Below, piece by piece: positions 22,236 to 54,716 of a stretch of DNA of 64,000 bases. The translations under genes and the position numbers were made by a program. The stretch comes from a virus: positions 1 through 64,000 of the IMG/VR virus record IMGVR_UViG_3300050821_016057; one strand, given 5' to 3'. Position 1 is the first letter of the stretch; every line of letters starts with the position of its first letter. The notes beneath the pieces were generated by a model that saw only the letters and a list, made by a program, of their open reading frames with translations, made no database searches and was not told where the DNA came from.

Positions 22236-23963
22236 ATGCCGCAGCCCCCGCAGTCCTACTACCCGCGAGCCAGCCTCAACCTGATCCTGCGGTTCGACGA
22301 GTTCGGGGCGTTCCACCCGCTGAAGGCGCGCGCGCCCGCGCTGTCGACCAAGAACCTGGACGGGCTGGGGGGCTCGCGCTCCCCCCTGTCCGCGCAGGTC
22401 GACCCGACCGCGCCGGCCGGCGTGACCCGGTACGTGATCGCCCAGCCGGGCTCGGCGTCGGCGGGCGGCCCGCAGGACCAGACGAGCAGCGTCGACCCCT
22501 ACACGTTCACGGTGACCGTGATCCCCAAGACGGCCTCGTGGTCGCAGGACGGGACCAAGGAGGCGACCAAGCTGGACGCGGTGCTCAAGTACGTGGACTG
22601 CCCGATCGACCCGCGGACCATCCGGTCGGCGGCGGTCGAGTTCTACCTGGGATGCGTGCCCGAGGACGACTTCGCCGGCCAGACCCAGGGGGTGTTCGGC
22701 GGCAACTCGACCGTCATCCCCACCCGGTTCACCGGCCCGTCGGGCGAGCCGCGGACCAACCTGCGGTTCCAGGGGTTCGTGAACAAGTGGGAGACCGACT
22801 GGGGGGACAGCGAGCCGACCATCCACCTGGAGTGCCAGGACAACTCGGTGCTGCTCCACCAGCAGGAGCAACCGCCCCGCCTGGCCATCAGCATGACCAA
22901 GCCGCTCGACCAGTCGGTGGCCGACTACATGGCCAACTTCGTCCAGTTCGCGGGCCTGTCGGTCGAGTACCGGCCCTCCACCGACGTCCCGCCCGTCCTG
23001 GGCCAGTCGCTGTCCGCGACCGCGTTCCGCCCCAACATCGGCCCGCCGATCAGCCGGGCGGGGGCGGGCGGGGGCGGCAAGGCGCCCAGCGTGTGGGACT
23101 ACCTGACCGAGGTGTGCGGGGCGGTCGGGCACAACATCCGGATGGACGGGACCACGCTGATCATCCAGCGGACGCGCTCGCTGGTGGTGGGCTCGGTCGG
23201 GTCGGAGGCGGCCCGGCCCGACGACCCGTTCCGGGGCCGGAACGTGGACGGGGTGCAGTTCGGCTACCGGCGCCTCATCTACGGGCGCAACATCAAGGGG
23301 CTCAAGGTGGCGCGCAACTTCACCCGCGCGACCCCGAAGAACATCGAGCTGCGCGCGTACAATTGTGAGACCAAGAAGTGTCTGGTCGCCCGGTTCCCGC
23401 AGCTGTCGGACCGGCAGGTGTACGCGCTGCCCGGCAACGTGACCGACCAGAAGTGGGAGGTGAAGCGGTGCTCGGGCATCACCGACCTGAGGGTCCTGAC
23501 CCAGATGGCGCAGGACTACTACGAGAGCCAGGGCCGGCAGGAGCTGGCGGTGGACGTGAAGACCGACAACATGGGGAGCTTCGGGGGGAGCAACCTGGAC
23601 CCGGACATCCTCGACATGAAGGTGGGGGACACGTTCGAGATCCTGGTCAACCGGGACCCGGACGACGTGAACGACCTCACCCGGATCGAGACCGCGCTGA
23701 CCGCGCAGGGGCAGAACGCGGCGCTGATGGTGCAGCTCGGGTTCAGCCAGGCGTTCGCCAACGCGTACGCGCGGGCGTACACGAACGCGGGCCTGCTCAC
23801 CCTGTTCAAGCTGAAGTCGCTCAAGATCGACTGGGGGGAGGACGGGGTCACGCTCACGGTGGGGGGGATCAACTACATCGAGGTGCGGGCGAACGTGCAG
23901 CTGCCGCCCGGGCAGGAGACCAGCGCGACCCCCCTGCAGCCGGCCGCCGGGGGTGGCGCGTGA
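22236..23963 (+). CDS. Baseplate hub (late control D-like)
   Basis: 575 aa; FQGFV...W...IHLECQD and SVWDYL motifs; precedes spike. Confidence 0.7.
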   Translation: MPQPPQSYYPRASLNLILRFDEFGAFHPLKARAPALSTKNLDGLGGSRSPLSAQVDPTAPAGVTRYVIAQPGSASAGGPQDQTSSVDPYTFTVTVIPKTASWSQDGTKEATKLDAVLKYVDCPIDPRTIRSAAVEFYLGCVPEDDFAGQTQGVFGGNSTVIPTRFTGPSGEPRTNLRFQGFVNKWETDWGDSEPTIHLECQDNSVLLHQQEQPPRLAISMTKPLDQSVADYMANFVQFAGLSVEYRPSTDVPPVLGQSLSATAFRPNIGPPISRAGAGGGGKAPSVWDYLTEVCGAVGHNIRMDGTTLIIQRTRSLVVGSVGSEAARPDDPFRGRNVDGVQFGYRRLIYGRNIKGLKVARNFTRATPKNIELRAYNCETKKCLVARFPQLSDRQVYALPGNVTDQKWEVKRCSGITDLRVLTQMAQDYYESQGRQELAVDVKTDNMGSFGGSNLDPDILDMKVGDTFEILVNRDPDDVNDLTRIETALTAQGQNAALMVQLGFSQAFANAYARAYTNAGLLTLFKLKSLKIDWGEDGVTLTVGGINYIEVRANVQLPPGQETSATPLQPAAGGGA

Positions 23964-24949
23964 GCCTGGCCGAGCACATCCGGGACCTGGCGGGCGGCCA
24001 CGAGGGGCAGTGGTGCAGCTACGGGATCGTCGAGCCGGACGCGGGAGGCAGCCACTCGGTCCGGTTCACGGACGGGGAGGGCAACCCGCACCCGCTGGGC
24101 GTGATGGTGGACGTGAAGCTCCAGCCGACCGGCGTGGTGGTGCCGTGCCGGGTGATGAGCCAGTGCGCGGGGGCGGGCGAGGGCGAGTACCACCCGTTCA
24201 TGCCGGGCGATGAGGTGATGGTGCTGGTCCCGGAGGGCGATCACCGGGCCGGCTGCGCGATCGTGGGCCGGTTCAACCAGACCCACGACGTGTTCCCGAC
24301 CAAGGTGGGCGGGATGGACGTGACCGGCAACACGTTCGGGTTCAAGCGGATGATCGCGCCGTTCATCCTGGAGACGGCGGGCGGGTACTCGATCCGGCAC
24401 GCCGTGACCGGGGCCGCGCTGACCGTCGACCAGACCGGCCAGTGGTTCGTCACCGACGGGGACGGGTCGCAGCTGGCGCTGACCCCGGACGTCGTCATGC
24501 TGATGAGCCCGGGCGGGGCGGCGGGCATGCAGGTCAACGTGGCGGACAGCACGATGATCCTGAAGGGGGACACAGCCTCGCTGGCGCTGGACGACGCCCT
24601 GGGGAGTAAGTGGCAGAGCTCGGGCATCCTGAGTTTCAGCACGTGCGGCAACCCGGGGCTCAACCACGTGACCACCCTGGAGGGGGTGACCCAGCTGCTG
24701 ACCGGGCTGTTCACCGCGCTGGCCACGATGCTGGTCGGGCAGGGGCCGCTGCCGCTCACCGGGGCCACGCTGGGCGCGCTGTTCGCGCCGGGGGCATTCA
24801 CGCTGCTCATGAACGAGGCGCTGCTGCTGGCCGGGACGCCCGCCTGCTCGTTCGCCCCCTACCTGGGCGCGATCCAGACCGCGCTGCTCATCCCCAAGGT
24901 CCCGGCCGTCAACGCCGGGGTGTGCAGCGTCGGCCTCCTGTCCGACTGA
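23960..24949 (+). CDS. Baseplate spike (gpV/Gp5 N-terminal OB fold)
   Basis: AGAGEGEYHPFMPGDEVMVLVPEGD...IVGR motif followed by beta-repeat region. Confidence 0.8.
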   Translation: MSLAEHIRDLAGGHEGQWCSYGIVEPDAGGSHSVRFTDGEGNPHPLGVMVDVKLQPTGVVVPCRVMSQCAGAGEGEYHPFMPGDEVMVLVPEGDHRAGCAIVGRFNQTHDVFPTKVGGMDVTGNTFGFKRMIAPFILETAGGYSIRHAVTGAALTVDQTGQWFVTDGDGSQLALTPDVVMLMSPGGAAGMQVNVADSTMILKGDTASLALDDALGSKWQSSGILSFSTCGNPGLNHVTTLEGVTQLLTGLFTALATMLVGQGPLPLTGATLGALFAPGAFTLLMNEALLLAGTPACSFAPYLGAIQTALLIPKVPAVNAGVCSVGLLSD

Positions 24950-24962: not shown

Positions 24963-26072
24963 ATGGGTTACCCGCCGCCCCCAGCAGGACCGCCCCCGCC
25001 GTTCCCGTTCGAGCAGGGCGGGGACATCGGGGCCGGGCAGGCCCAGATCGCCGCCGCACCCTCCAACGCGGTGGCGGCCGCCGCAGCCGCCCAGGCGGCC
25101 GCGCTGGCGGCGGCCCAGGCGCAGCGCGCGGTCATCATGGCCCCGGCGGTGGCCGCGCAGGCGGCGGCCACGCAGGCGGCGACCAACCTGCAGGACGCGC
25201 TCACCACCGAGACCGTGATCGCGGTGGGGGCGACCCTGCCCACCGGGAGCATCGTGGTCGCGGACGCGTCCGGGTTCGCCAGCCCGGGGACGTTCCTGGT
25301 GGGCGGGCAGTGGGTGCGGTTCACGGGGGTGTCGGGCAACACGCTGACCGGGTGCACGGGCGGGACCGGGGCGGTCAACCCGGGCGACCCGGTCCAGACG
25401 GCCGGCAACCCGTCCAACATCGCTTCCGCCCAGCAGGCGCTGGGCGTGGCGAGCGCGAACGCCACCCAGGCGAACATCACTGCCGCGCAGGCGGTGGCGG
25501 CGGCCGAGGAGGAGGCGCTGGCCGCGCTGGCGGCGGTCGCGAGCGCGCTCGCGCTGGCCGAGGCCGCCAAGCAGAAGCTGGCCGCCATCACGGGCACCAC
25601 CCCGGCGAGCGCGCTGACCGCGGGGCTGAAGGCCGAGATCGCCGCGCTCGAGGCGCAGGCCGAGGGGGCGGTCGGGTTCATCGAGACGCTCTGCGCGATC
25701 TTCGAGGCCGGGCTGACGCTCAGCCTGGGGGGTAACCCGCTCGACTTCGGGGCCACCCTGACCGCGTCGCTCAGCGCGGACGCGAGCGCGGGCGTCACCG
25801 CCACGTGCTGCGGGTTCACGCTCGACATCGAGGTCGGGTTCGTCATCAACTTCCAGCTGCCCGCCTTCGCGCTCAACCTGGAGCTGCTGCTGCCCTACAT
25901 CGGGTTCACGATCTCGTGCGACCCCGGCAAGCCGGTCAACATCTCGGCCGGGCTCCCCTACGGGGGCGGGCGGGTCAGCAATTCCGAGCCCGACCCGGAT
26001 CTTTCAGAGAACGATTACGCCTGGTGCGAGATGGGCCCGGGCGAGCGGTGGAACCGAAACCTGGCCTTCTAG
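24963..26072 (+). CDS. Baseplate-region virion protein (Ala-rich coils, shared beta module, C-terminal AWCEMGPGERWN tag)
   Basis: 369 aa between spike and wedge genes. Confidence 0.65.
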   Translation: MGYPPPPAGPPPPFPFEQGGDIGAGQAQIAAAPSNAVAAAAAAQAAALAAAQAQRAVIMAPAVAAQAAATQAATNLQDALTTETVIAVGATLPTGSIVVADASGFASPGTFLVGGQWVRFTGVSGNTLTGCTGGTGAVNPGDPVQTAGNPSNIASAQQALGVASANATQANITAAQAVAAAEEEALAALAAVASALALAEAAKQKLAAITGTTPASALTAGLKAEIAALEAQAEGAVGFIETLCAIFEAGLTLSLGGNPLDFGATLTASLSADASAGVTATCCGFTLDIEVGFVINFQLPAFALNLELLLPYIGFTISCDPGKPVNISAGLPYGGGRVSNSEPDPDLSENDYAWCEMGPGERWNRNLAF

Positions 26073-26078
26073 GATTCA

Positions 26079-26096
26079 CCCAAACCCGGGTTTGGG
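26079..26096. repeat. 18-bp palindrome copy 7
   Basis: Exact; 6 nt after stop. Confidence 0.97.
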
Positions 26097-48819: not shown

Positions 48820-48837
48820 CCCAAACCCGGGTTTGGG
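48820..48837. repeat. 18-bp palindrome copy 13
   Basis: Exact; intergenic. Confidence 0.97.
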
Positions 48838-48852
48838 AGAAAGACGACAGAC

Positions 48853-50280
48853 ATGGGTATCGACGATTTCCTCTCGCACCGGTCCAGCGACCGGGGCGCC
48901 TACCTGACCAAGTGGAAGGATGACGGGAAGGTGAACACGTGGATGCACTGCGAGCGGCTGCCGATGGCGGTGTGGCGGCACGGCGGCATCCCCAAGGTGG
49001 TGGTGCTGGAGGACAAGAAGACGGGCGAGTCGGTCCGGCACGTCTGGTCGGGCGAGTACGTGTGCCACGAGGACGAGAGCGTGCTCAAGAAGCAGTACAA
49101 GCTGAACCCGGACGGGTCGCGCGAGGTGCCGCCCGAGTACTGCCCGGACTGCCGGCTGGCCGACTACGCGCGGCGCCTGGTGGGGAGCGGGCGCAAGAGC
49201 TGGATGGACCCGCTGTTTGAGTGGGAGGCGGACGACCCCAAGGAGAACCTGACGCTCACGGCGGGCGGGATCTTCATGTCCAGGAAGGCGTTCGACGAGC
49301 TGGAGCTGGACGAGGACGACACGAAGGAGATGCGGAAGCGGGGCATCGTCATCAAGGACATGTGGAAGCAGAACGTGTTCGCGAAGATGAGCTACCTGTT
49401 CTGCGTGGTGGATGACGCCCACCCGGAGTCGGGCGTCCAGAAGGCGTTCAATCCGCAGTCGCTCGGGGACGCGGTCAAGGACGTGATCGCGGACCGGAGG
49501 GAGTCGCTCGGCCTGGAGGAGGGGGACCCGACTCTCAACCCGTACTGCATCCAGTGGCAGTACCGGGAGAAGGAGAAGAACTTCAAGGACAAGTACCACG
49601 CGCTCGTGATGGAGAAGATCAAGCTGACGAGCGCGGTCGAGCGGCTGATCACCGGGCCGGCCCCCGACATCTCGCGGGACACCCAGCCGTTCAACATCGT
49701 CGAGCACCGGGCGTTCCTGGAGGAGGCGGCGGCGGTCAAGCTGCCGTGGGACCAGATCTTCGACGTCAAGAAGCGGGTGGTCCGGGAGGCCGAGGAGGAG
49801 CCGCGCCCGCCTCGCGCGTCTAAGGCGAAGCCAAAGGAAGACGAGCCCGAGCCCCGGCCGTCCAAGCAGGTGAAGGGGAAGAAGCGGTCGCCTATCCCGG
49901 ATGAGGACGATGAGAACGCGGTGGCGTGCGAGGCCCCGATGGAGAACGGGGAGGAGTGCGGCCGGCCTATGTGGGCGGACGACCTGGACTGCCCGCACTG
50001 CGGGGCCCACTACGACGAGTCGGGTAAGCTGATCGAGAAGGAGAAGCCGAGGGGCAAGCTTCGCAAGCGGAGCGAGGCGGCGGAACCCGAGGAGGAGAAG
50101 CCGGCTGCCAGGGCGTCCAAGAAGGCCAAGCCGGCGCCCGATCCCGAGCCGAGCAAGCCCATGCGCGAGCCCGGGGACGACTCGGAGGAGGACGACGATC
50201 CGTTGCCTTTTGCTTGGTGTGAGGTCGGCCCCGGGGAACGTTGGAATGCGGAGCGGTTGCCGCGGTGGTTGCGCGGATGA
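48853..50280 (+). CDS. gp32-like single-stranded DNA-binding protein
   Basis: H...C...CPDC zinc site; charged disordered C-terminal half; DSEEDDDPLPF acidic motif; before recA. Confidence 0.65.
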   Translation: MGIDDFLSHRSSDRGAYLTKWKDDGKVNTWMHCERLPMAVWRHGGIPKVVVLEDKKTGESVRHVWSGEYVCHEDESVLKKQYKLNPDGSREVPPEYCPDCRLADYARRLVGSGRKSWMDPLFEWEADDPKENLTLTAGGIFMSRKAFDELELDEDDTKEMRKRGIVIKDMWKQNVFAKMSYLFCVVDDAHPESGVQKAFNPQSLGDAVKDVIADRRESLGLEEGDPTLNPYCIQWQYREKEKNFKDKYHALVMEKIKLTSAVERLITGPAPDISRDTQPFNIVEHRAFLEEAAAVKLPWDQIFDVKKRVVREAEEEPRPPRASKAKPKEDEPEPRPSKQVKGKKRSPIPDEDDENAVACEAPMENGEECGRPMWADDLDCPHCGAHYDESGKLIEKEKPRGKLRKRSEAAEPEEEKPAARASKKAKPAPDPEPSKPMREPGDDSEEDDDPLPFAWCEVGPGERWNAERLPRWLRG

Positions 50281-50356: not shown

Positions 50357-51529
50357 ATGGCCAGGAAGCCGGTGCGGTCGAGCAAGAGGGGGGCGCGGGA
50401 GTTGACCGCGCTTCAGGAGGTCAGGCAGGCGTTCGCCGGGTTCCGCCCGGCGAGCGAGGTGCTGACCGAGGTCAGGGCCGTCCCGACTTGCTTCATCCAG
50501 GTCGACCACGCGCTCAAGGTCGGCGGCTGGCCGATCGAGCGGTTCACGCTCGTCCACGGCCCGAGCAACCACGGCAAGACCCTCTTCTGCGCCGGGCTGG
50601 TGATGTCGTTCCTGCGCCGCGGCGGGCAGGCGCTCTGGCTGGACGCGGAGCGGACCAGCCCGATCACGTGGTTTCGCACGCTGATGGGCGAGTGGGCGGA
50701 CTCGGCCGACTTCCACGCGCAGCGGCCCGACACCTACGAGGGGGTGATCGCGGACGTGCGCAACTACCTGAACGCGGTCATCCGGCTGAAGCAGGAGGGG
50801 AAGATGGACCGGGACCGACCGGTCATCCTGGTGTGCGACAGCCTGAGGAAGCTGGTGCCCAAGAACATGATGAAGGAGATCCTGGAGGCCGAGAAGCAGG
50901 CGACCGAGTCCGGGATCAAGGGCGGTCAGGACCGGTCGGGACAGCTGCGGGCCAAGATGAACGCGGCGTGGATGGACGAGCTGGTGCCGCTGCTCGAGAA
51001 GGCGGGCGGGGTGATGGTGGCGATCGCCAGGGAGATGCAGGACCCGGACGCCGACCCGATGAGCCGGAAGTGGGGGAACGACTACAAGATCGGCGGGGGC
51101 GGGGCGATCTACTTCGACAGCTCGGTGGTGGCCCGGGTCGAGCGGGCCTCGTTCGTCAGCCACGGCGAGCAGAAGGACAAGCGGGTCTACGGGGAGCGCC
51201 ACCGGGTGACGATCAAGAAGACCAAGGTGGCGGCCAAGGACGACAAGGTGCAGGTGGGGTACTTCCACTCGAGCAACGGCAAGCTGGTGCCCGAGGGGTT
51301 CGACCGGGCCCGGGACGTGCTCGAGCTGGCGATCCGGTTCGGGATCGTCCGGCTGGCGGGCGCCAACTACTCGCATGCTGGGAGGAAGATCGCGTCGGGC
51401 GCGCACAACGCGGTCGTGCAGCTGACCGACAGCCCGGACTGGCTGGACGAGATCGAGGCGGAGGCGCGCGAGCAGCTGGGCGCGCACAAGCCGCCCGAGG
51501 AGAACGAAGTCACCGGGGAGGTGGAGTGA
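50357..51529 (+). CDS. recA: RecA/UvsX recombinase
   Basis: LKVGGWP, GPSNHGKT, LDAE, VCDS, GGGAIYFDSS, KKTKV. Confidence 0.92.
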   Translation: MARKPVRSSKRGARELTALQEVRQAFAGFRPASEVLTEVRAVPTCFIQVDHALKVGGWPIERFTLVHGPSNHGKTLFCAGLVMSFLRRGGQALWLDAERTSPITWFRTLMGEWADSADFHAQRPDTYEGVIADVRNYLNAVIRLKQEGKMDRDRPVILVCDSLRKLVPKNMMKEILEAEKQATESGIKGGQDRSGQLRAKMNAAWMDELVPLLEKAGGVMVAIAREMQDPDADPMSRKWGNDYKIGGGGAIYFDSSVVARVERASFVSHGEQKDKRVYGERHRVTIKKTKVAAKDDKVQVGYFHSSNGKLVPEGFDRARDVLELAIRFGIVRLAGANYSHAGRKIASGAHNAVVQLTDSPDWLDEIEAEAREQLGAHKPPEENEVTGEVE

Positions 51530-52269
51530 TGAAGATGCTCCTCACCTCCGACTGGCACGCCGACGCCAAAACCCTGGGCAGGTCCAGGTTCGGGGACGTG
51601 GACCGGGCGGTCCGGCAGACCGTGGACGCGGCGATCGAGCGGCGGGTGGACTGCTGGTGCTTCCTGGGCGACCTCTGCGACCCGGACAGCGGGAGTGCGG
51701 CGTTCCGGTCGGTCGAGCTGGCGGTGAGCACGGCGATGGAGTTGAGCCGGGCCGGCATCATCAACATCTGGGTGGCGGGTAACCACGACGTGATCGAGGA
51801 CGGGTCGGGCGACACGACGCTGAGCCCGCTGCGCCCGCTTTACATGGAGGGGTCGTTCACCAAGCTGTTCGAGCGGCCCGGCCACCACATGCTCGCACCC
51901 GGCTACCCGGAAGGGGTGACCGTGCACGCGCTCCCCTACACGGCGACCAGCCACCCCTACAGCCCGGCCGGGGAGTTCGACGGGGTGGACCTGCGCAGGG
52001 GCAGGCACGTCGTGCTCGCCCACCTGATGGTCCGGGGGGTGGAGCCGGGCGAGGAGACGAACGAGATGCCGCGGGGCCGGGACGTCGTGTTCCCGCGGGA
52101 CCTGTTCCCGACCGACATGTCGTGCGTCCAACTGGCGAACGGGCACTACCACCGCCAGCAGGTCCACGAGGTGTCGGGGCGGCGGCCCGTCCTGATCCCG
52201 GGGGCGGCGGCCCGGTTCACGTTCGGGGAGGGGCAGAACCTACCCGGCTACATGATCGTGGAGGTCTGA
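51529..52269 (+). CDS. SbcD/Mre11-like metallophosphoesterase
   Basis: SDWH, GDL, GNHD, LAHL, GHYH. Confidence 0.9.
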   Translation: MKMLLTSDWHADAKTLGRSRFGDVDRAVRQTVDAAIERRVDCWCFLGDLCDPDSGSAAFRSVELAVSTAMELSRAGIINIWVAGNHDVIEDGSGDTTLSPLRPLYMEGSFTKLFERPGHHMLAPGYPEGVTVHALPYTATSHPYSPAGEFDGVDLRRGRHVVLAHLMVRGVEPGEETNEMPRGRDVVFPRDLFPTDMSCVQLANGHYHRQQVHEVSGRRPVLIPGAAARFTFGEGQNLPGYMIVEV

Positions 52270-52769: not shown

Positions 52770-54716
52770 GTGCATGTGTCGCTGCTGCGGTTCTCGAACT
52801 GGAAGTGCTTCGCGGGTGAGCAGGAGGTCCGGCTGAAGCCGCTCGCCTACTCGGTGGTGGCCCGCCGGGTCGGGGAGGAGGAGCGGTCGAACTGGGGCGG
52901 CAAGACCACGTTCCTCCGGGGCGTCCACTTCCTGCTGTTCGGCGAGCACGGGGAGGCGACCGAAGACGGGTGGATCACGCGCGGGGAGGACGCGGGCGAG
53001 GTGGCCGGGCAGCTGTCGGACGGGTCCAGGCAGCTGTTCGTCCAGCGGCAGAGACGGCGGGGCAAGAGCACACAGTTGTTGGTCCGCGAGCTGCCGGACG
53101 GTCCGCCCATGAAGGGGGACGAGGCGCAGCGGTTCCTGGACGGGTTGGTGGGGATGGGCCGGGAGGACTTCCAGGCCACCTGCTACTTCGAGCAGCGGCA
53201 GATGGCCCGGCTGGTGCTGGCCCGCCCGCAGGAGCGGATGGACGTGATCGCGGCGTGGATGCGCCTCGGGCAGCTGGTCGAGGGCGAGGAGCTGGTGCGC
53301 AAGGAGCTGGGGGACGCCAGCTACGCGCTGCTTACTGAGCGGTCACGGCTGCAGGACGAGGAGCGGAAGATCGCCAACCTGCTGGGAGAGCGGGACCGCA
53401 CCCAGCTGGTCGGGGAGTCGGGGTTGGCGGACGTGGGGCTGCTCCGCGCGCGGGACGAGTACGAGGAGGCGCTGCAGCGGGCGGAGGCGGGCCGGCTGGC
53501 GGCGGGCACGCGGGTCCGGGTGGAGAGCTACGAGCGGATCGCCCGGGAGGGGAGGGAGCTGGCCGAGCGGCTCAAGGGGATGGACCTCGAGCAGCTGGCC
53601 CGGGCCGAGCAGCAGATCGAGGGATTGGTCAGGGCGGCGGCGGCCGACCTGGGCTCGGCCAAGCAGGAGGCGACGGAGCGGCGCAGGGTCGCGCTCGGTC
53701 AGTTCGACGGCCGGTGCCCGGTCGCGGGGGTGACGTGCCCGGTCAAGGACGACATCAACAACCAGGGGGTGCGGTCCAGGAAGGCGCTGGAGGTGGCGGC
53801 CCAGAACGTGGCCAGGGAGGAGGGCGCGTACAACGAGGTGGTGGCCCGGCTGACCCCGGCGAAGGCGGCCCACCAGGAGGCGCTGCGGCTCAAGGCGAGG
53901 ATCGACACGCTGCGCGAGCAGATCGAGCCGTTCCACCGCGAGTACCGGAGGGCGAGGGAGCAGACGCCGGTCGACATGGAGGCGCTCAACCGGGAGGTGA
54001 GCGGTTGCCTCCAGCGGGTGTCCGAGGCCGAGCGGGTGGTGGGCGCGCTCCAGCGCGGGCTGGCCGAGCTGGACCGGGCGCTGGCCGAGCGGGAGCGACT
54101 GCGGGGCGTGGTGGCCGGGATGGAGGCGGCGTGCGCCACCCACCGGGAGGCCGCGCTGGTGTTCGGCAAGCAGGGGGCGCAGCGGAGGGTGGCCGAGCTG
54201 GCGCTGCGCGGCATCGAGGACGGGGCGAACGCGATGCTGCGCGAGTGCGGGATCGACCTGTCGGTGGAGGTCCGTTGGAGCCGGGAGGGGCAGGGGCTGG
54301 CCAAGGCGTGCGACGCGTGCGGGAGCCCGTTCCCGGCGAGCGCCCGGGTGAAGCGGTGCGAGCGGTGCGGGGCCGAGCGCGGCCAGCTGACCGTGAACCG
54401 GCTGGAGCTCGACTTGTCCGACCGGAGCGGGGCGGCCGAGGACCTGGCGGGCGCGGCCATCCAGCTGTCGGCCAGCGCGTGGCTGCGGGGCGAGCGGGCG
54501 AGCGGCTGGGGGACGGCGCTGCTGGACGAGCCTTTCGGCCAGTTGGACGCGGCGAACCGGCGGGCGTTCGCCACCCACCTGGCGGCGATGCTGCGGGGCC
54601 GGTACGGGTTCGAGCAGGCGCTGGTGGTCAGCCATACCGCCGACACCACCCACATGCTGCCCGGTCGAATCGAGATCACCAACGACGGGGGGCGCGCTAC
54701 CGTCAGGGTGGCATGA
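52770..54716 (+). CDS. SbcC/Rad50-like SMC ATPase
   Basis: NWKCF, SNWGGKTT, coiled coil with central CPV...C, RSGA signature, LLDEPFGQLD, VVSH. Confidence 0.92.
   Translation: MHVSLLRFSNWKCFAGEQEVRLKPLAYSVVARRVGEEERSNWGGKTTFLRGVHFLLFGEHGEATEDGWITRGEDAGEVAGQLSDGSRQLFVQRQRRRGKSTQLLVRELPDGPPMKGDEAQRFLDGLVGMGREDFQATCYFEQRQMARLVLARPQERMDVIAAWMRLGQLVEGEELVRKELGDASYALLTERSRLQDEERKIANLLGERDRTQLVGESGLADVGLLRARDEYEEALQRAEAGRLAAGTRVRVESYERIAREGRELAERLKGMDLEQLARAEQQIEGLVRAAAADLGSAKQEATERRRVALGQFDGRCPVAGVTCPVKDDINNQGVRSRKALEVAAQNVAREEGAYNEVVARLTPAKAAHQEALRLKARIDTLREQIEPFHREYRRAREQTPVDMEALNREVSGCLQRVSEAERVVGALQRGLAELDRALAERERLRGVVAGMEAACATHREAALVFGKQGAQRRVAELALRGIEDGANAMLRECGIDLSVEVRWSREGQGLAKACDACGSPFPASARVKRCERCGAERGQLTVNRLELDLSDRSGAAEDLAGAAIQLSASAWLRGERASGWGTALLDEPFGQLDAANRRAFATHLAAMLRGRYGFEQALVVSHTADTTHMLPGRIEITNDGGRATVRVA

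Follow-up and report, generated by a model that had tools for sequence, protein, structure and literature searches.

A twelve-residue peptide placed behind the acidic C-terminal tails of two unrelated proteins of an uncultured soil phage

Why would two unrelated proteins of one phage carry nearly the same twelve-residue peptide, each time directly behind an acidic run near the C-terminus? The question is raised by the IMG/VR virus record IMGVR_UViG_3300050821_016057, of which we analysed the first 64 kb (positions 1 to 64,000, hereafter the window). The phage is uncultured and comes from soil, and its genome is a single record of 99,861 bp with 70% GC and a CheckV completeness of 100%. The two copies of the peptide, referred to as the tag, lie in frame at the 3' ends of two plus-strand open reading frames (ORFs). 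Copy 1, AWCEVGPGERWN, occupies 50212..50247 in the ORF 48853-50280, and copy 2, AWCEMGPGERWN, occupies 26019..26054 in the ORF 24963-26072. The first ORF encodes a 475-residue protein that we assign to the gp32-type proteins that bind single-stranded DNA (SSBs), and the second a 369-residue protein of the baseplate module. The tag is real and selected, and it may be a short linear recognition motif, a reading that we favour tentatively.

The two copies agree as peptides and diverge as DNA. Eleven of the twelve residues are identical, and the codons show seven synonymous differences and one V/M replacement (copy 1, GCT TGG TGT GAG GTC GGC CCC GGG GAA CGT TGG AAT; copy 2, GCC TGG TGC GAG ATG GGC CCG GGC GAG CGG TGG AAC). 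By the Nei-Gojobori method, there are 7.5 synonymous differences over 7 sites and 1.5 non-synonymous differences over 29 sites (binomial P = 1.5e-5), and the synonymous divergence between the copies is saturated. The longest identical run of DNA measures about 5-6 nucleotides, and the flanks do not align. The near identity of the peptides in the face of seven synonymous codon differences indicates that the peptide, not its DNA, is under selection, and the shortness of the identical runs excludes a function at the DNA level as well as recent copying. The original prediction, which had located both copies and read their codon differences in this way, is borne out. Searched in six frames with a regular expression and a small hidden Markov model, the whole genome contains exactly these two copies and no third. 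Among 93 plausible ORFs, the tag is the only long peptide common to non-overlapping ORFs, apart from words generated by an 18-bp palindrome; the other shared words of seven or eight residues are mostly translations of this palindrome, and the remainder fall within the numbers obtained with shuffled proteins. The palindrome, read in frame, gives the words PKPGFG and PNPGLG in several ORFs. It has copies directly 3' of the 369-residue gene (26079-26096) and just before the SSB start (48820-48837).

Assembly error is excluded as the source of either copy, because soil contigs reproduce copy 2 and an independent homologue of the SSB, P0001, shares the extension of copy 1. The region 26019-26054 is covered without differences by Logan contigs from three soil runs, namely X1 (up to position 26048), X2, and X4, and the tag region shows no polymorphism in the contigs from these runs. 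The larger segment 24900-26200 is identical in Logan contigs of three soil-metagenome runs of 2018 that belong to separate studies, and a 158-nucleotide piece of this region is also present in one wastewater run. The two copies differ in codon usage. At third codon positions, the GC content (GC3) falls to 0.67-0.8 over the final 30 codons of the SSB gene (50173-50277) versus 0.93 for the whole gene, and codons ending in A or T (GAT, CCT, TTT, GCT, TGT, GAA, CGT, and AAT) span the PLPF tip and copy 1. Copy 2 has the normal codons ending in G or C. The 3' end of the SSB gene could have been acquired from a relative of lower GC content, or the two copies could have been kept unlike at the DNA level.

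The first carrier is encoded on the plus strand at 48853..50280, with ATG 48853 as the most likely start. It is composed of a core with oligonucleotide-binding (OB) fold and Zn site, a disordered linker with a Zn-ribbon, an acidic tail, and the tag. Sequence searches against Pfam, PHROG, and PDB gave no match beyond a Zn-ribbon. In the AlphaFold2 (AF2) model, the predicted local distance difference test (pLDDT) score exceeds 90 in the core, stays under 50 in the tail, and is 53-69 in the tag. VIA-align superimposes the core on the T4 and RB69 gp32 cores over ~180-196 residues, with Z scores of 8.3 for 1gpc (188 residues aligned, root mean square deviation 4.9), 8.2 for 2a1k_B, 7.5 for 2atq_B, and 7.1 for 8gme_A, and the next unrelated entries have Z scores of at most 4.8. 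Foldseek also matches the core with 8gme_A at a probability of 0.96, but with a weak E value of 8.7e-3. Downstream of the gene are a UvsX/RecA-like recombinase gene (50357..51529, plus strand; PF00154 RecA, E = 7e-11; phrog_97 UvsX-like, E = 2e-36), a Mre11-like gene (51526-52266, Pfam Metallophos match), and a Rad50-like gene (52770-54716, Pfam SbcC/Rad50 Walker B match below the cut-off). Since the predicted core matches gp32 cores and recombination genes follow, we assign carrier 1 to the SSBs of T4 gp32 fold; that it is an SSB agrees with the guess of the original prediction. The recombinase is a possible partner of the SSB tail. The Zn-ribbon lies within the disordered linker (49900-50040) that joins the gp32-like core to the acidic tail. 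Its cysteines C366, C376, C387, and C390 (numbered from 48832; residues ~366-390) are invariant in 34 homologues, and it weakly resembles the ribbons of ribosomal protein L32 type (E ~0.03).

The tag of the SSB lies behind a tip that is the natural C-terminus of most homologues. The window SSB ends in the order DDSEEDDDPLPF-AWCEVGPGERWN-AERLPRWLRG, where the acidic tip occupies 50176..50211 and the post-tag tail 50248..50277, both on the plus strand. The EEDDDPLPF segment is an acidic run ending in [IL]-P-F, with P459 and F460 nearly invariant among 34 homologues (alignment A1). Twenty-two residues follow this Phe, which is hence not terminal and has no free carboxylate. By comparison, 25 of 35 SSB homologues end exactly at ...PF. 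Three end one or two residues behind PF, as does the IMG/VR relative L003; three have another aromatic end, two have a long extension, and the remaining two, of which one is a fragment, fall in none of these groups. The proposal that the tag masks the SSB tip thus holds in that the tag buries what is terminal in most relatives. It had also been supposed that the terminal Phe must be free, and a strict need of this kind may not exist in the SSB family in view of the three homologues and L003 with residues behind PF.

Two SSB homologues carry versions of the tag. P0001 is the sister of the window SSB (support 100/99, 77% identity in the core) and ends ...DPIPF-AWCEMDPGERWN-FSKSPKWLRG. Its tag is identical to copy 1 at 10 of 12 positions, the terminal P[RK]WLRG is kept, and the linker in front of the tag has drifted. 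P0021 is distant in the SSB tree and ends ...NLPF-ASSVVDPLDPSERWNR, a weaker version (...DPSERWN) in which the P-x-E-R-W-N core alone is kept at a similar distance from PF, without the Cys and the first Trp. The tree requires that the extension was gained or lost at least twice. Over all four copies, the conserved core is [GD]P[GS]ERWN, and the junction in front of the tag is aromatic-Ala in each (PF|A, DY|A, PF|A, and PF|A). All three tagged SSBs keep the [LI]PF tip, and the extreme C-termini of the tagged proteins differ (WLRG, NLAF, and WNR).

The second carrier, a baseplate-module protein, is encoded on the plus strand at 24963..26072. It consists of a Pro-rich N-terminus, long Ala-rich helices, a Cys-rich hydrophobic C-terminal region, an acidic tail, and the tag. 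Its AF2 model does not resolve a fold (pLDDT 41.6), and the ESM Atlas provided nothing useful on its fold. The protein ends in the order SEPDPDLSENDY-AWCEMGPGERWN-RNLAF, with the acidic tail at 25983..26018 and the post-tag residues at 26055..26069 of the plus strand. Five relatives were found, all of them untagged and all ending at the acidic tail, which is thus their natural C-terminus: ...DENNC, ...DENSC (P0038, the same protein as L006), ...NEESP, ...DESYP, and ...SNSEPDPDLSENAY. The last of these, L008, ends ...GGGRVSNSEPDPDLSENAY (SENAY), exactly where the tag of the window protein starts. Homologues of both carriers therefore end where the tag begins, as the original prediction had suggested, and the two carriers are indeed unrelated proteins. 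The further remark of that prediction that both tags follow an acidic run with an aromatic end holds for the two window proteins; a terminal aromatic residue is not a feature of the 369-residue family, whose members end in C, P, or Y.

In the family of the 369-residue protein (24963-26018 of the window, L004, L006, L007, and L008), the N-terminus M-G-Y-P-P-P and five Cys, among them a C-C-G-F pair, are invariant, and the acidic tail, G-G-G-R-x-x-N-x-x-P-D-P-D, is conserved. Its genes always follow the central spike gene, and it has no family assignment. In the window, the gene has a gpV/Mu gp45-like spike gene on one side and, on the other, a gene for a 299-residue protein, behind which comes Baseplate_J. 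The spike gene (23957..24949, plus strand) has the typical GDEVMVLVPEGD motif and a Phage_base_V OB domain at E = 0.002, below the Pfam cut-off; the order of spike gene and 369-residue gene recurs in L004. Only 13 nucleotides separate the two genes. The C-terminal third of the spike-like protein (24700-24949) is strongly hydrophobic, Gly/Ala-rich, and membrane-like. PHROGs and Pfam searches with the head and tail genes remained mostly empty, and no prohead protease was recognised among them.

Beyond these four copies the tag was not found. The DNA pattern for W-C-E-x-G-P-G-E-R-W-N has no match in IMG/VR, and W-C-E-x-x-P-G-E-R-W-N has none in JGI metagenome contigs and none in 185,579 prokaryote genomes (185,579 species, one genome each). 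With the looser E-x-[GDE]-P-G-E-R-W-N, IMG/VR yields two chance matches, neither of them C-terminal, and the same prokaryote set yields 49, which are random frames and the internal motif PLEFEPGERWNYSN, with no cellular look-alike tail. The form F-[ED]-P-G-E-R-W-N-Y-S-N recurs in bacterial proteins (L011, L012, L021, L023, L040, L042, L048, L051, and L052). It presumably represents, together with PLEFEPGERWNYSN, the Y-x-N region motif of serine beta-lactamases and esterases. We rejected it as a relative of the tag, as it is an internal motif that overlaps by chance with the second half of the tag. Among 1.84 billion protein-cluster representatives, a profile of the two tails matched nothing but the window's own protein and artefacts from satellite repeats. 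A word-based search of the tails against 5.8 billion proteins returned the window's own protein only; it missed P0001 too and is weak evidence. Neither carrier has a tblastn match among 50,697 GenBank phages. The tag had been called portable, which is apt for the two window proteins, the sister SSB, and the divergent distant SSB, and extends to nothing further in these very large databases. By sequence comparison, the tag is a lineage-restricted add-on, placed directly behind the conserved natural acidic end in both protein families, because the homologues and relatives end where it begins.

What does the add-on do? Docking, removal, and marking for turnover are all conceivable roles. Our tentative answer is that the tag would be a short linear motif that one putative partner, shared by both proteins, recognises. 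The phage lineage would have grafted the 12-mer behind the natural ends of the SSB (...D-x-[LI]-P-F) and of the 369-residue protein (...EPDPD-x-x-E-N-x-x). Both acidic tails would serve as disordered handles, and the common add-on would turn them into ligands of a single reader, which may be a phage or a host protein. The tag would stay on the protein, such that the handle is extended or re-addressed, not chemically altered. We infer that a single shared reader exists and that the tag is not removed. As the extreme ends differ, the motif would be read internally, in the manner of a linear motif in a disordered tail. P0021 keeps the core in the absence of the Cys and the first Trp, and therefore Cys/Trp chemistry is unlikely and the pattern fits a recognition motif; the modification of these residues put forward in the original prediction is weakened accordingly by the reduced core. 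Recognition without removal also fits the one or two extra residues that occur naturally behind PF in the SSB family. Several points weigh against it. The tag "code" is deduced from two carrier proteins, a very small sample. A partner common to a structural-module protein and a replication protein has no obvious rationale. That the three tagged SSBs have all kept [LI]PF is at least as compatible with a removable cap. Finally, canonical SSB tips are held via their last Phe, whose carboxylate is free (PMC5872125), so that an extension left uncleaved should prevent binding of the classical kind.

The last two points speak for another reading, which we consider possible though doubtful, namely that the tag is a removable cap. 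As a C-terminal propeptide, it would mask both acidic tails until a protease cut at [F/Y]|A frees ...PLPF and ...ENDY. The add-on starts exactly at the natural terminus in both proteins, but any insertion that replaces a stop codon gives the same exact junction. The aromatic-Ala junctions of all four copies would suit a common cleavage site. A candidate enzyme is encoded outside the window, an HslV-family peptidase (genome 80086-80679; L001:16086-16676; phrog_1040, E = 4e-28) that starts M-T-T-V and hence likely has an N-terminal Thr nucleophile. HslV-like genes are nevertheless widespread in unrelated, untagged phages of IMG/VR, where relatives with the same N-terminus occur on 42 unrelated contigs of many sizes. 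Moreover, the SSB homologues and L003 with one or two residues after PF indicate that the free Phe may be dispensable, and a protein needed as early in infection as the SSB wants a rationale for being masked.

A role of the tag as an engagement signal or degron is unlikely. Here both proteins would be unfolded, extracted, or degraded at a set time by an AAA+ unfoldase, alone or together with the HslV-like peptidase. The phage encodes both types of enzyme. The unfoldase candidate (872 residues; genome 65332-67950; L001:1332-3947; also outside the window) has a single AAA domain of the classical clade, which is split by an insertion of about 60 residues and has a K-F-V-G pore loop. It matches Cdc48 and the archaeal VAT with E = 2.7e-72 and 1.5e-70, and the D1 and D2 domains of Cdc48 both align to its one AAA domain. 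The ~460 N-terminal residues have no match. Such an unfoldase seems unusual in a phage. Two related fragments from IMG/VR yielded neither the AAA+ nor the HslV-like gene, which is uninformative as these records are 30-47% complete. Both tags end long disordered tails, which AAA+ machines need for starting. However, we see no tie between the tag and either enzyme, degrons of the known kind mostly rely on the extreme terminus, where the copies are unlike, and it is not obvious what use there would be in destroying a baseplate-module protein at a set time. A composite scheme is improbable as a whole: one removable peptide would mask the docking tails of two proteins, an early replication protein and a probably injected spike-associated one, and the phage AAA+ protein and/or the HslV-like peptidase would strip this cap, thereby timing the binding of the tails or hiding the SSB tip from host sensors.

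It is very unlikely that the tag is a signal for virion incorporation or co-delivery, by which it would bind a tail or baseplate part and the SSB would be packaged and injected with the spike-adjacent protein. Phages do package and inject accessory proteins, and one carrier is encoded in the baseplate module beside the spike. The relatives of this carrier are untagged, however, so that the tag is not needed for their incorporation, and we know of no packaged gp32-type SSB. Most improbable is that the tag is a functionless recombination scar, as the low GC3 of the SSB tail (0.67) might suggest, or a Trp/Cys-rich peptide modified like a ribosomally synthesised and post-translationally modified peptide: the former conflicts with the strong purifying selection in the two paralogous copies and P0001, and the latter with the core of P0021, which lacks the Cys and the first Trp, and with the fact that Pfam and PHROGs named no modification enzyme over ~45 ORFs of an only partly annotated proteome.

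Three further candidates were rejected. Read-through of conserved downstream DNA does not account for the tag, as the sequence 3' of the L008 stop codon is unlike it. Neither a frameshift nor an early stop at PF is present in the reading frame. Sorting signals such as LPXTG, PEP-CTERM, and MYXO-CTERM are not in question, as a hydrophobic anchor is missing and 5-10 mostly polar residues follow the motif. As for ssrA-like degrons, their extreme C-terminal residues are conserved, and the tagged proteins differ there.

The finding matters for the biology of SSB tails, which are hubs that recruit replication, recombination, and repair proteins; moreover, phage SSBs are sensed by some defence systems. 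Either the tip of this SSB family need not be free, or the phage masks and unmasks it, and both alternatives predict that the replication machinery is physically tied to a protein of the infection apparatus. The tag is short enough to be used directly as bait or as a transferable tag.

How does the tag compare with known C-terminal elements? The ChAD elements of toxin-antitoxin-chaperone systems are C-terminal extensions that are short, can be transferred, and show an aromatic pattern; a dedicated protein, a SecB-like chaperone, reads them (bioRxiv 10.1101/2024.02.24.581848). The tag is likewise a short C-terminal extension with an aromatic pattern. In contrast, the carriers of ChAD are antitoxins and there is no sequence similarity between the two. 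Pfam and PHROGs searches of ~45 ORFs revealed no SecB-like gene, although no search was aimed at SecB. With ssrA-type degrons of AAA+ proteases, the tag shares that it is short and ends a disordered tail in a genome with an AAA+ unfoldase and an HslV-like peptidase; it differs in that the extreme termini of its copies are unlike.

The T4 tails are closer. In T4, shared C-terminal tails act as docking handles, which is an established principle. The A domain of T4 gp32 and the clamp-binding tails resemble the present case in the gp32-like fold and in a tail that serves as a hub, here with an RKRSE motif, an acidic tip, and the tag; the differences are that the motif here lies short of the extreme terminus and that its sequence is not similar to the T4 tails. 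In T7, the tail of the helicase-primase gp4 is similar to that of gp2.5, so that two proteins of one phage have look-alike disordered acidic tails with an aromatic end, which dock on one partner, the DNA polymerase. The same pattern recurs here, where two unrelated proteins of one phage have the 12-mer, each behind an acidic run. However, the shared element is a further 12-mer behind the acidic/aromatic end, and the second carrier belongs to the baseplate module, not to the replisome. According to PMC12339929, which refers to PMC2781589, gp2.5 docks on the DNA polymerase via its acidic tail and cannot do without its terminal Phe. The bacterial SSB C-terminus (...DDDIPF) is likewise an acidic run with [LI]-P-F behind it, which forms the extreme terminus in bacterial SSBs as in the 25 homologues mentioned above. 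The phage protein differs from bacterial SSBs in its T4 gp32 fold, as well as in the 22 residues behind the Phe, whose terminal carboxylate is what the known pockets bind (PMC5872125). Hence, the nearest principle is that of the shared acidic C-terminal tails of phage replisome proteins, as in T7 gp2.5/gp4 and T4, together with the bacterial SSB C-terminus. The present case differs by a shared element that lies behind the tip, a normally terminal Phe that is buried, and a second carrier that comes from the infection apparatus.

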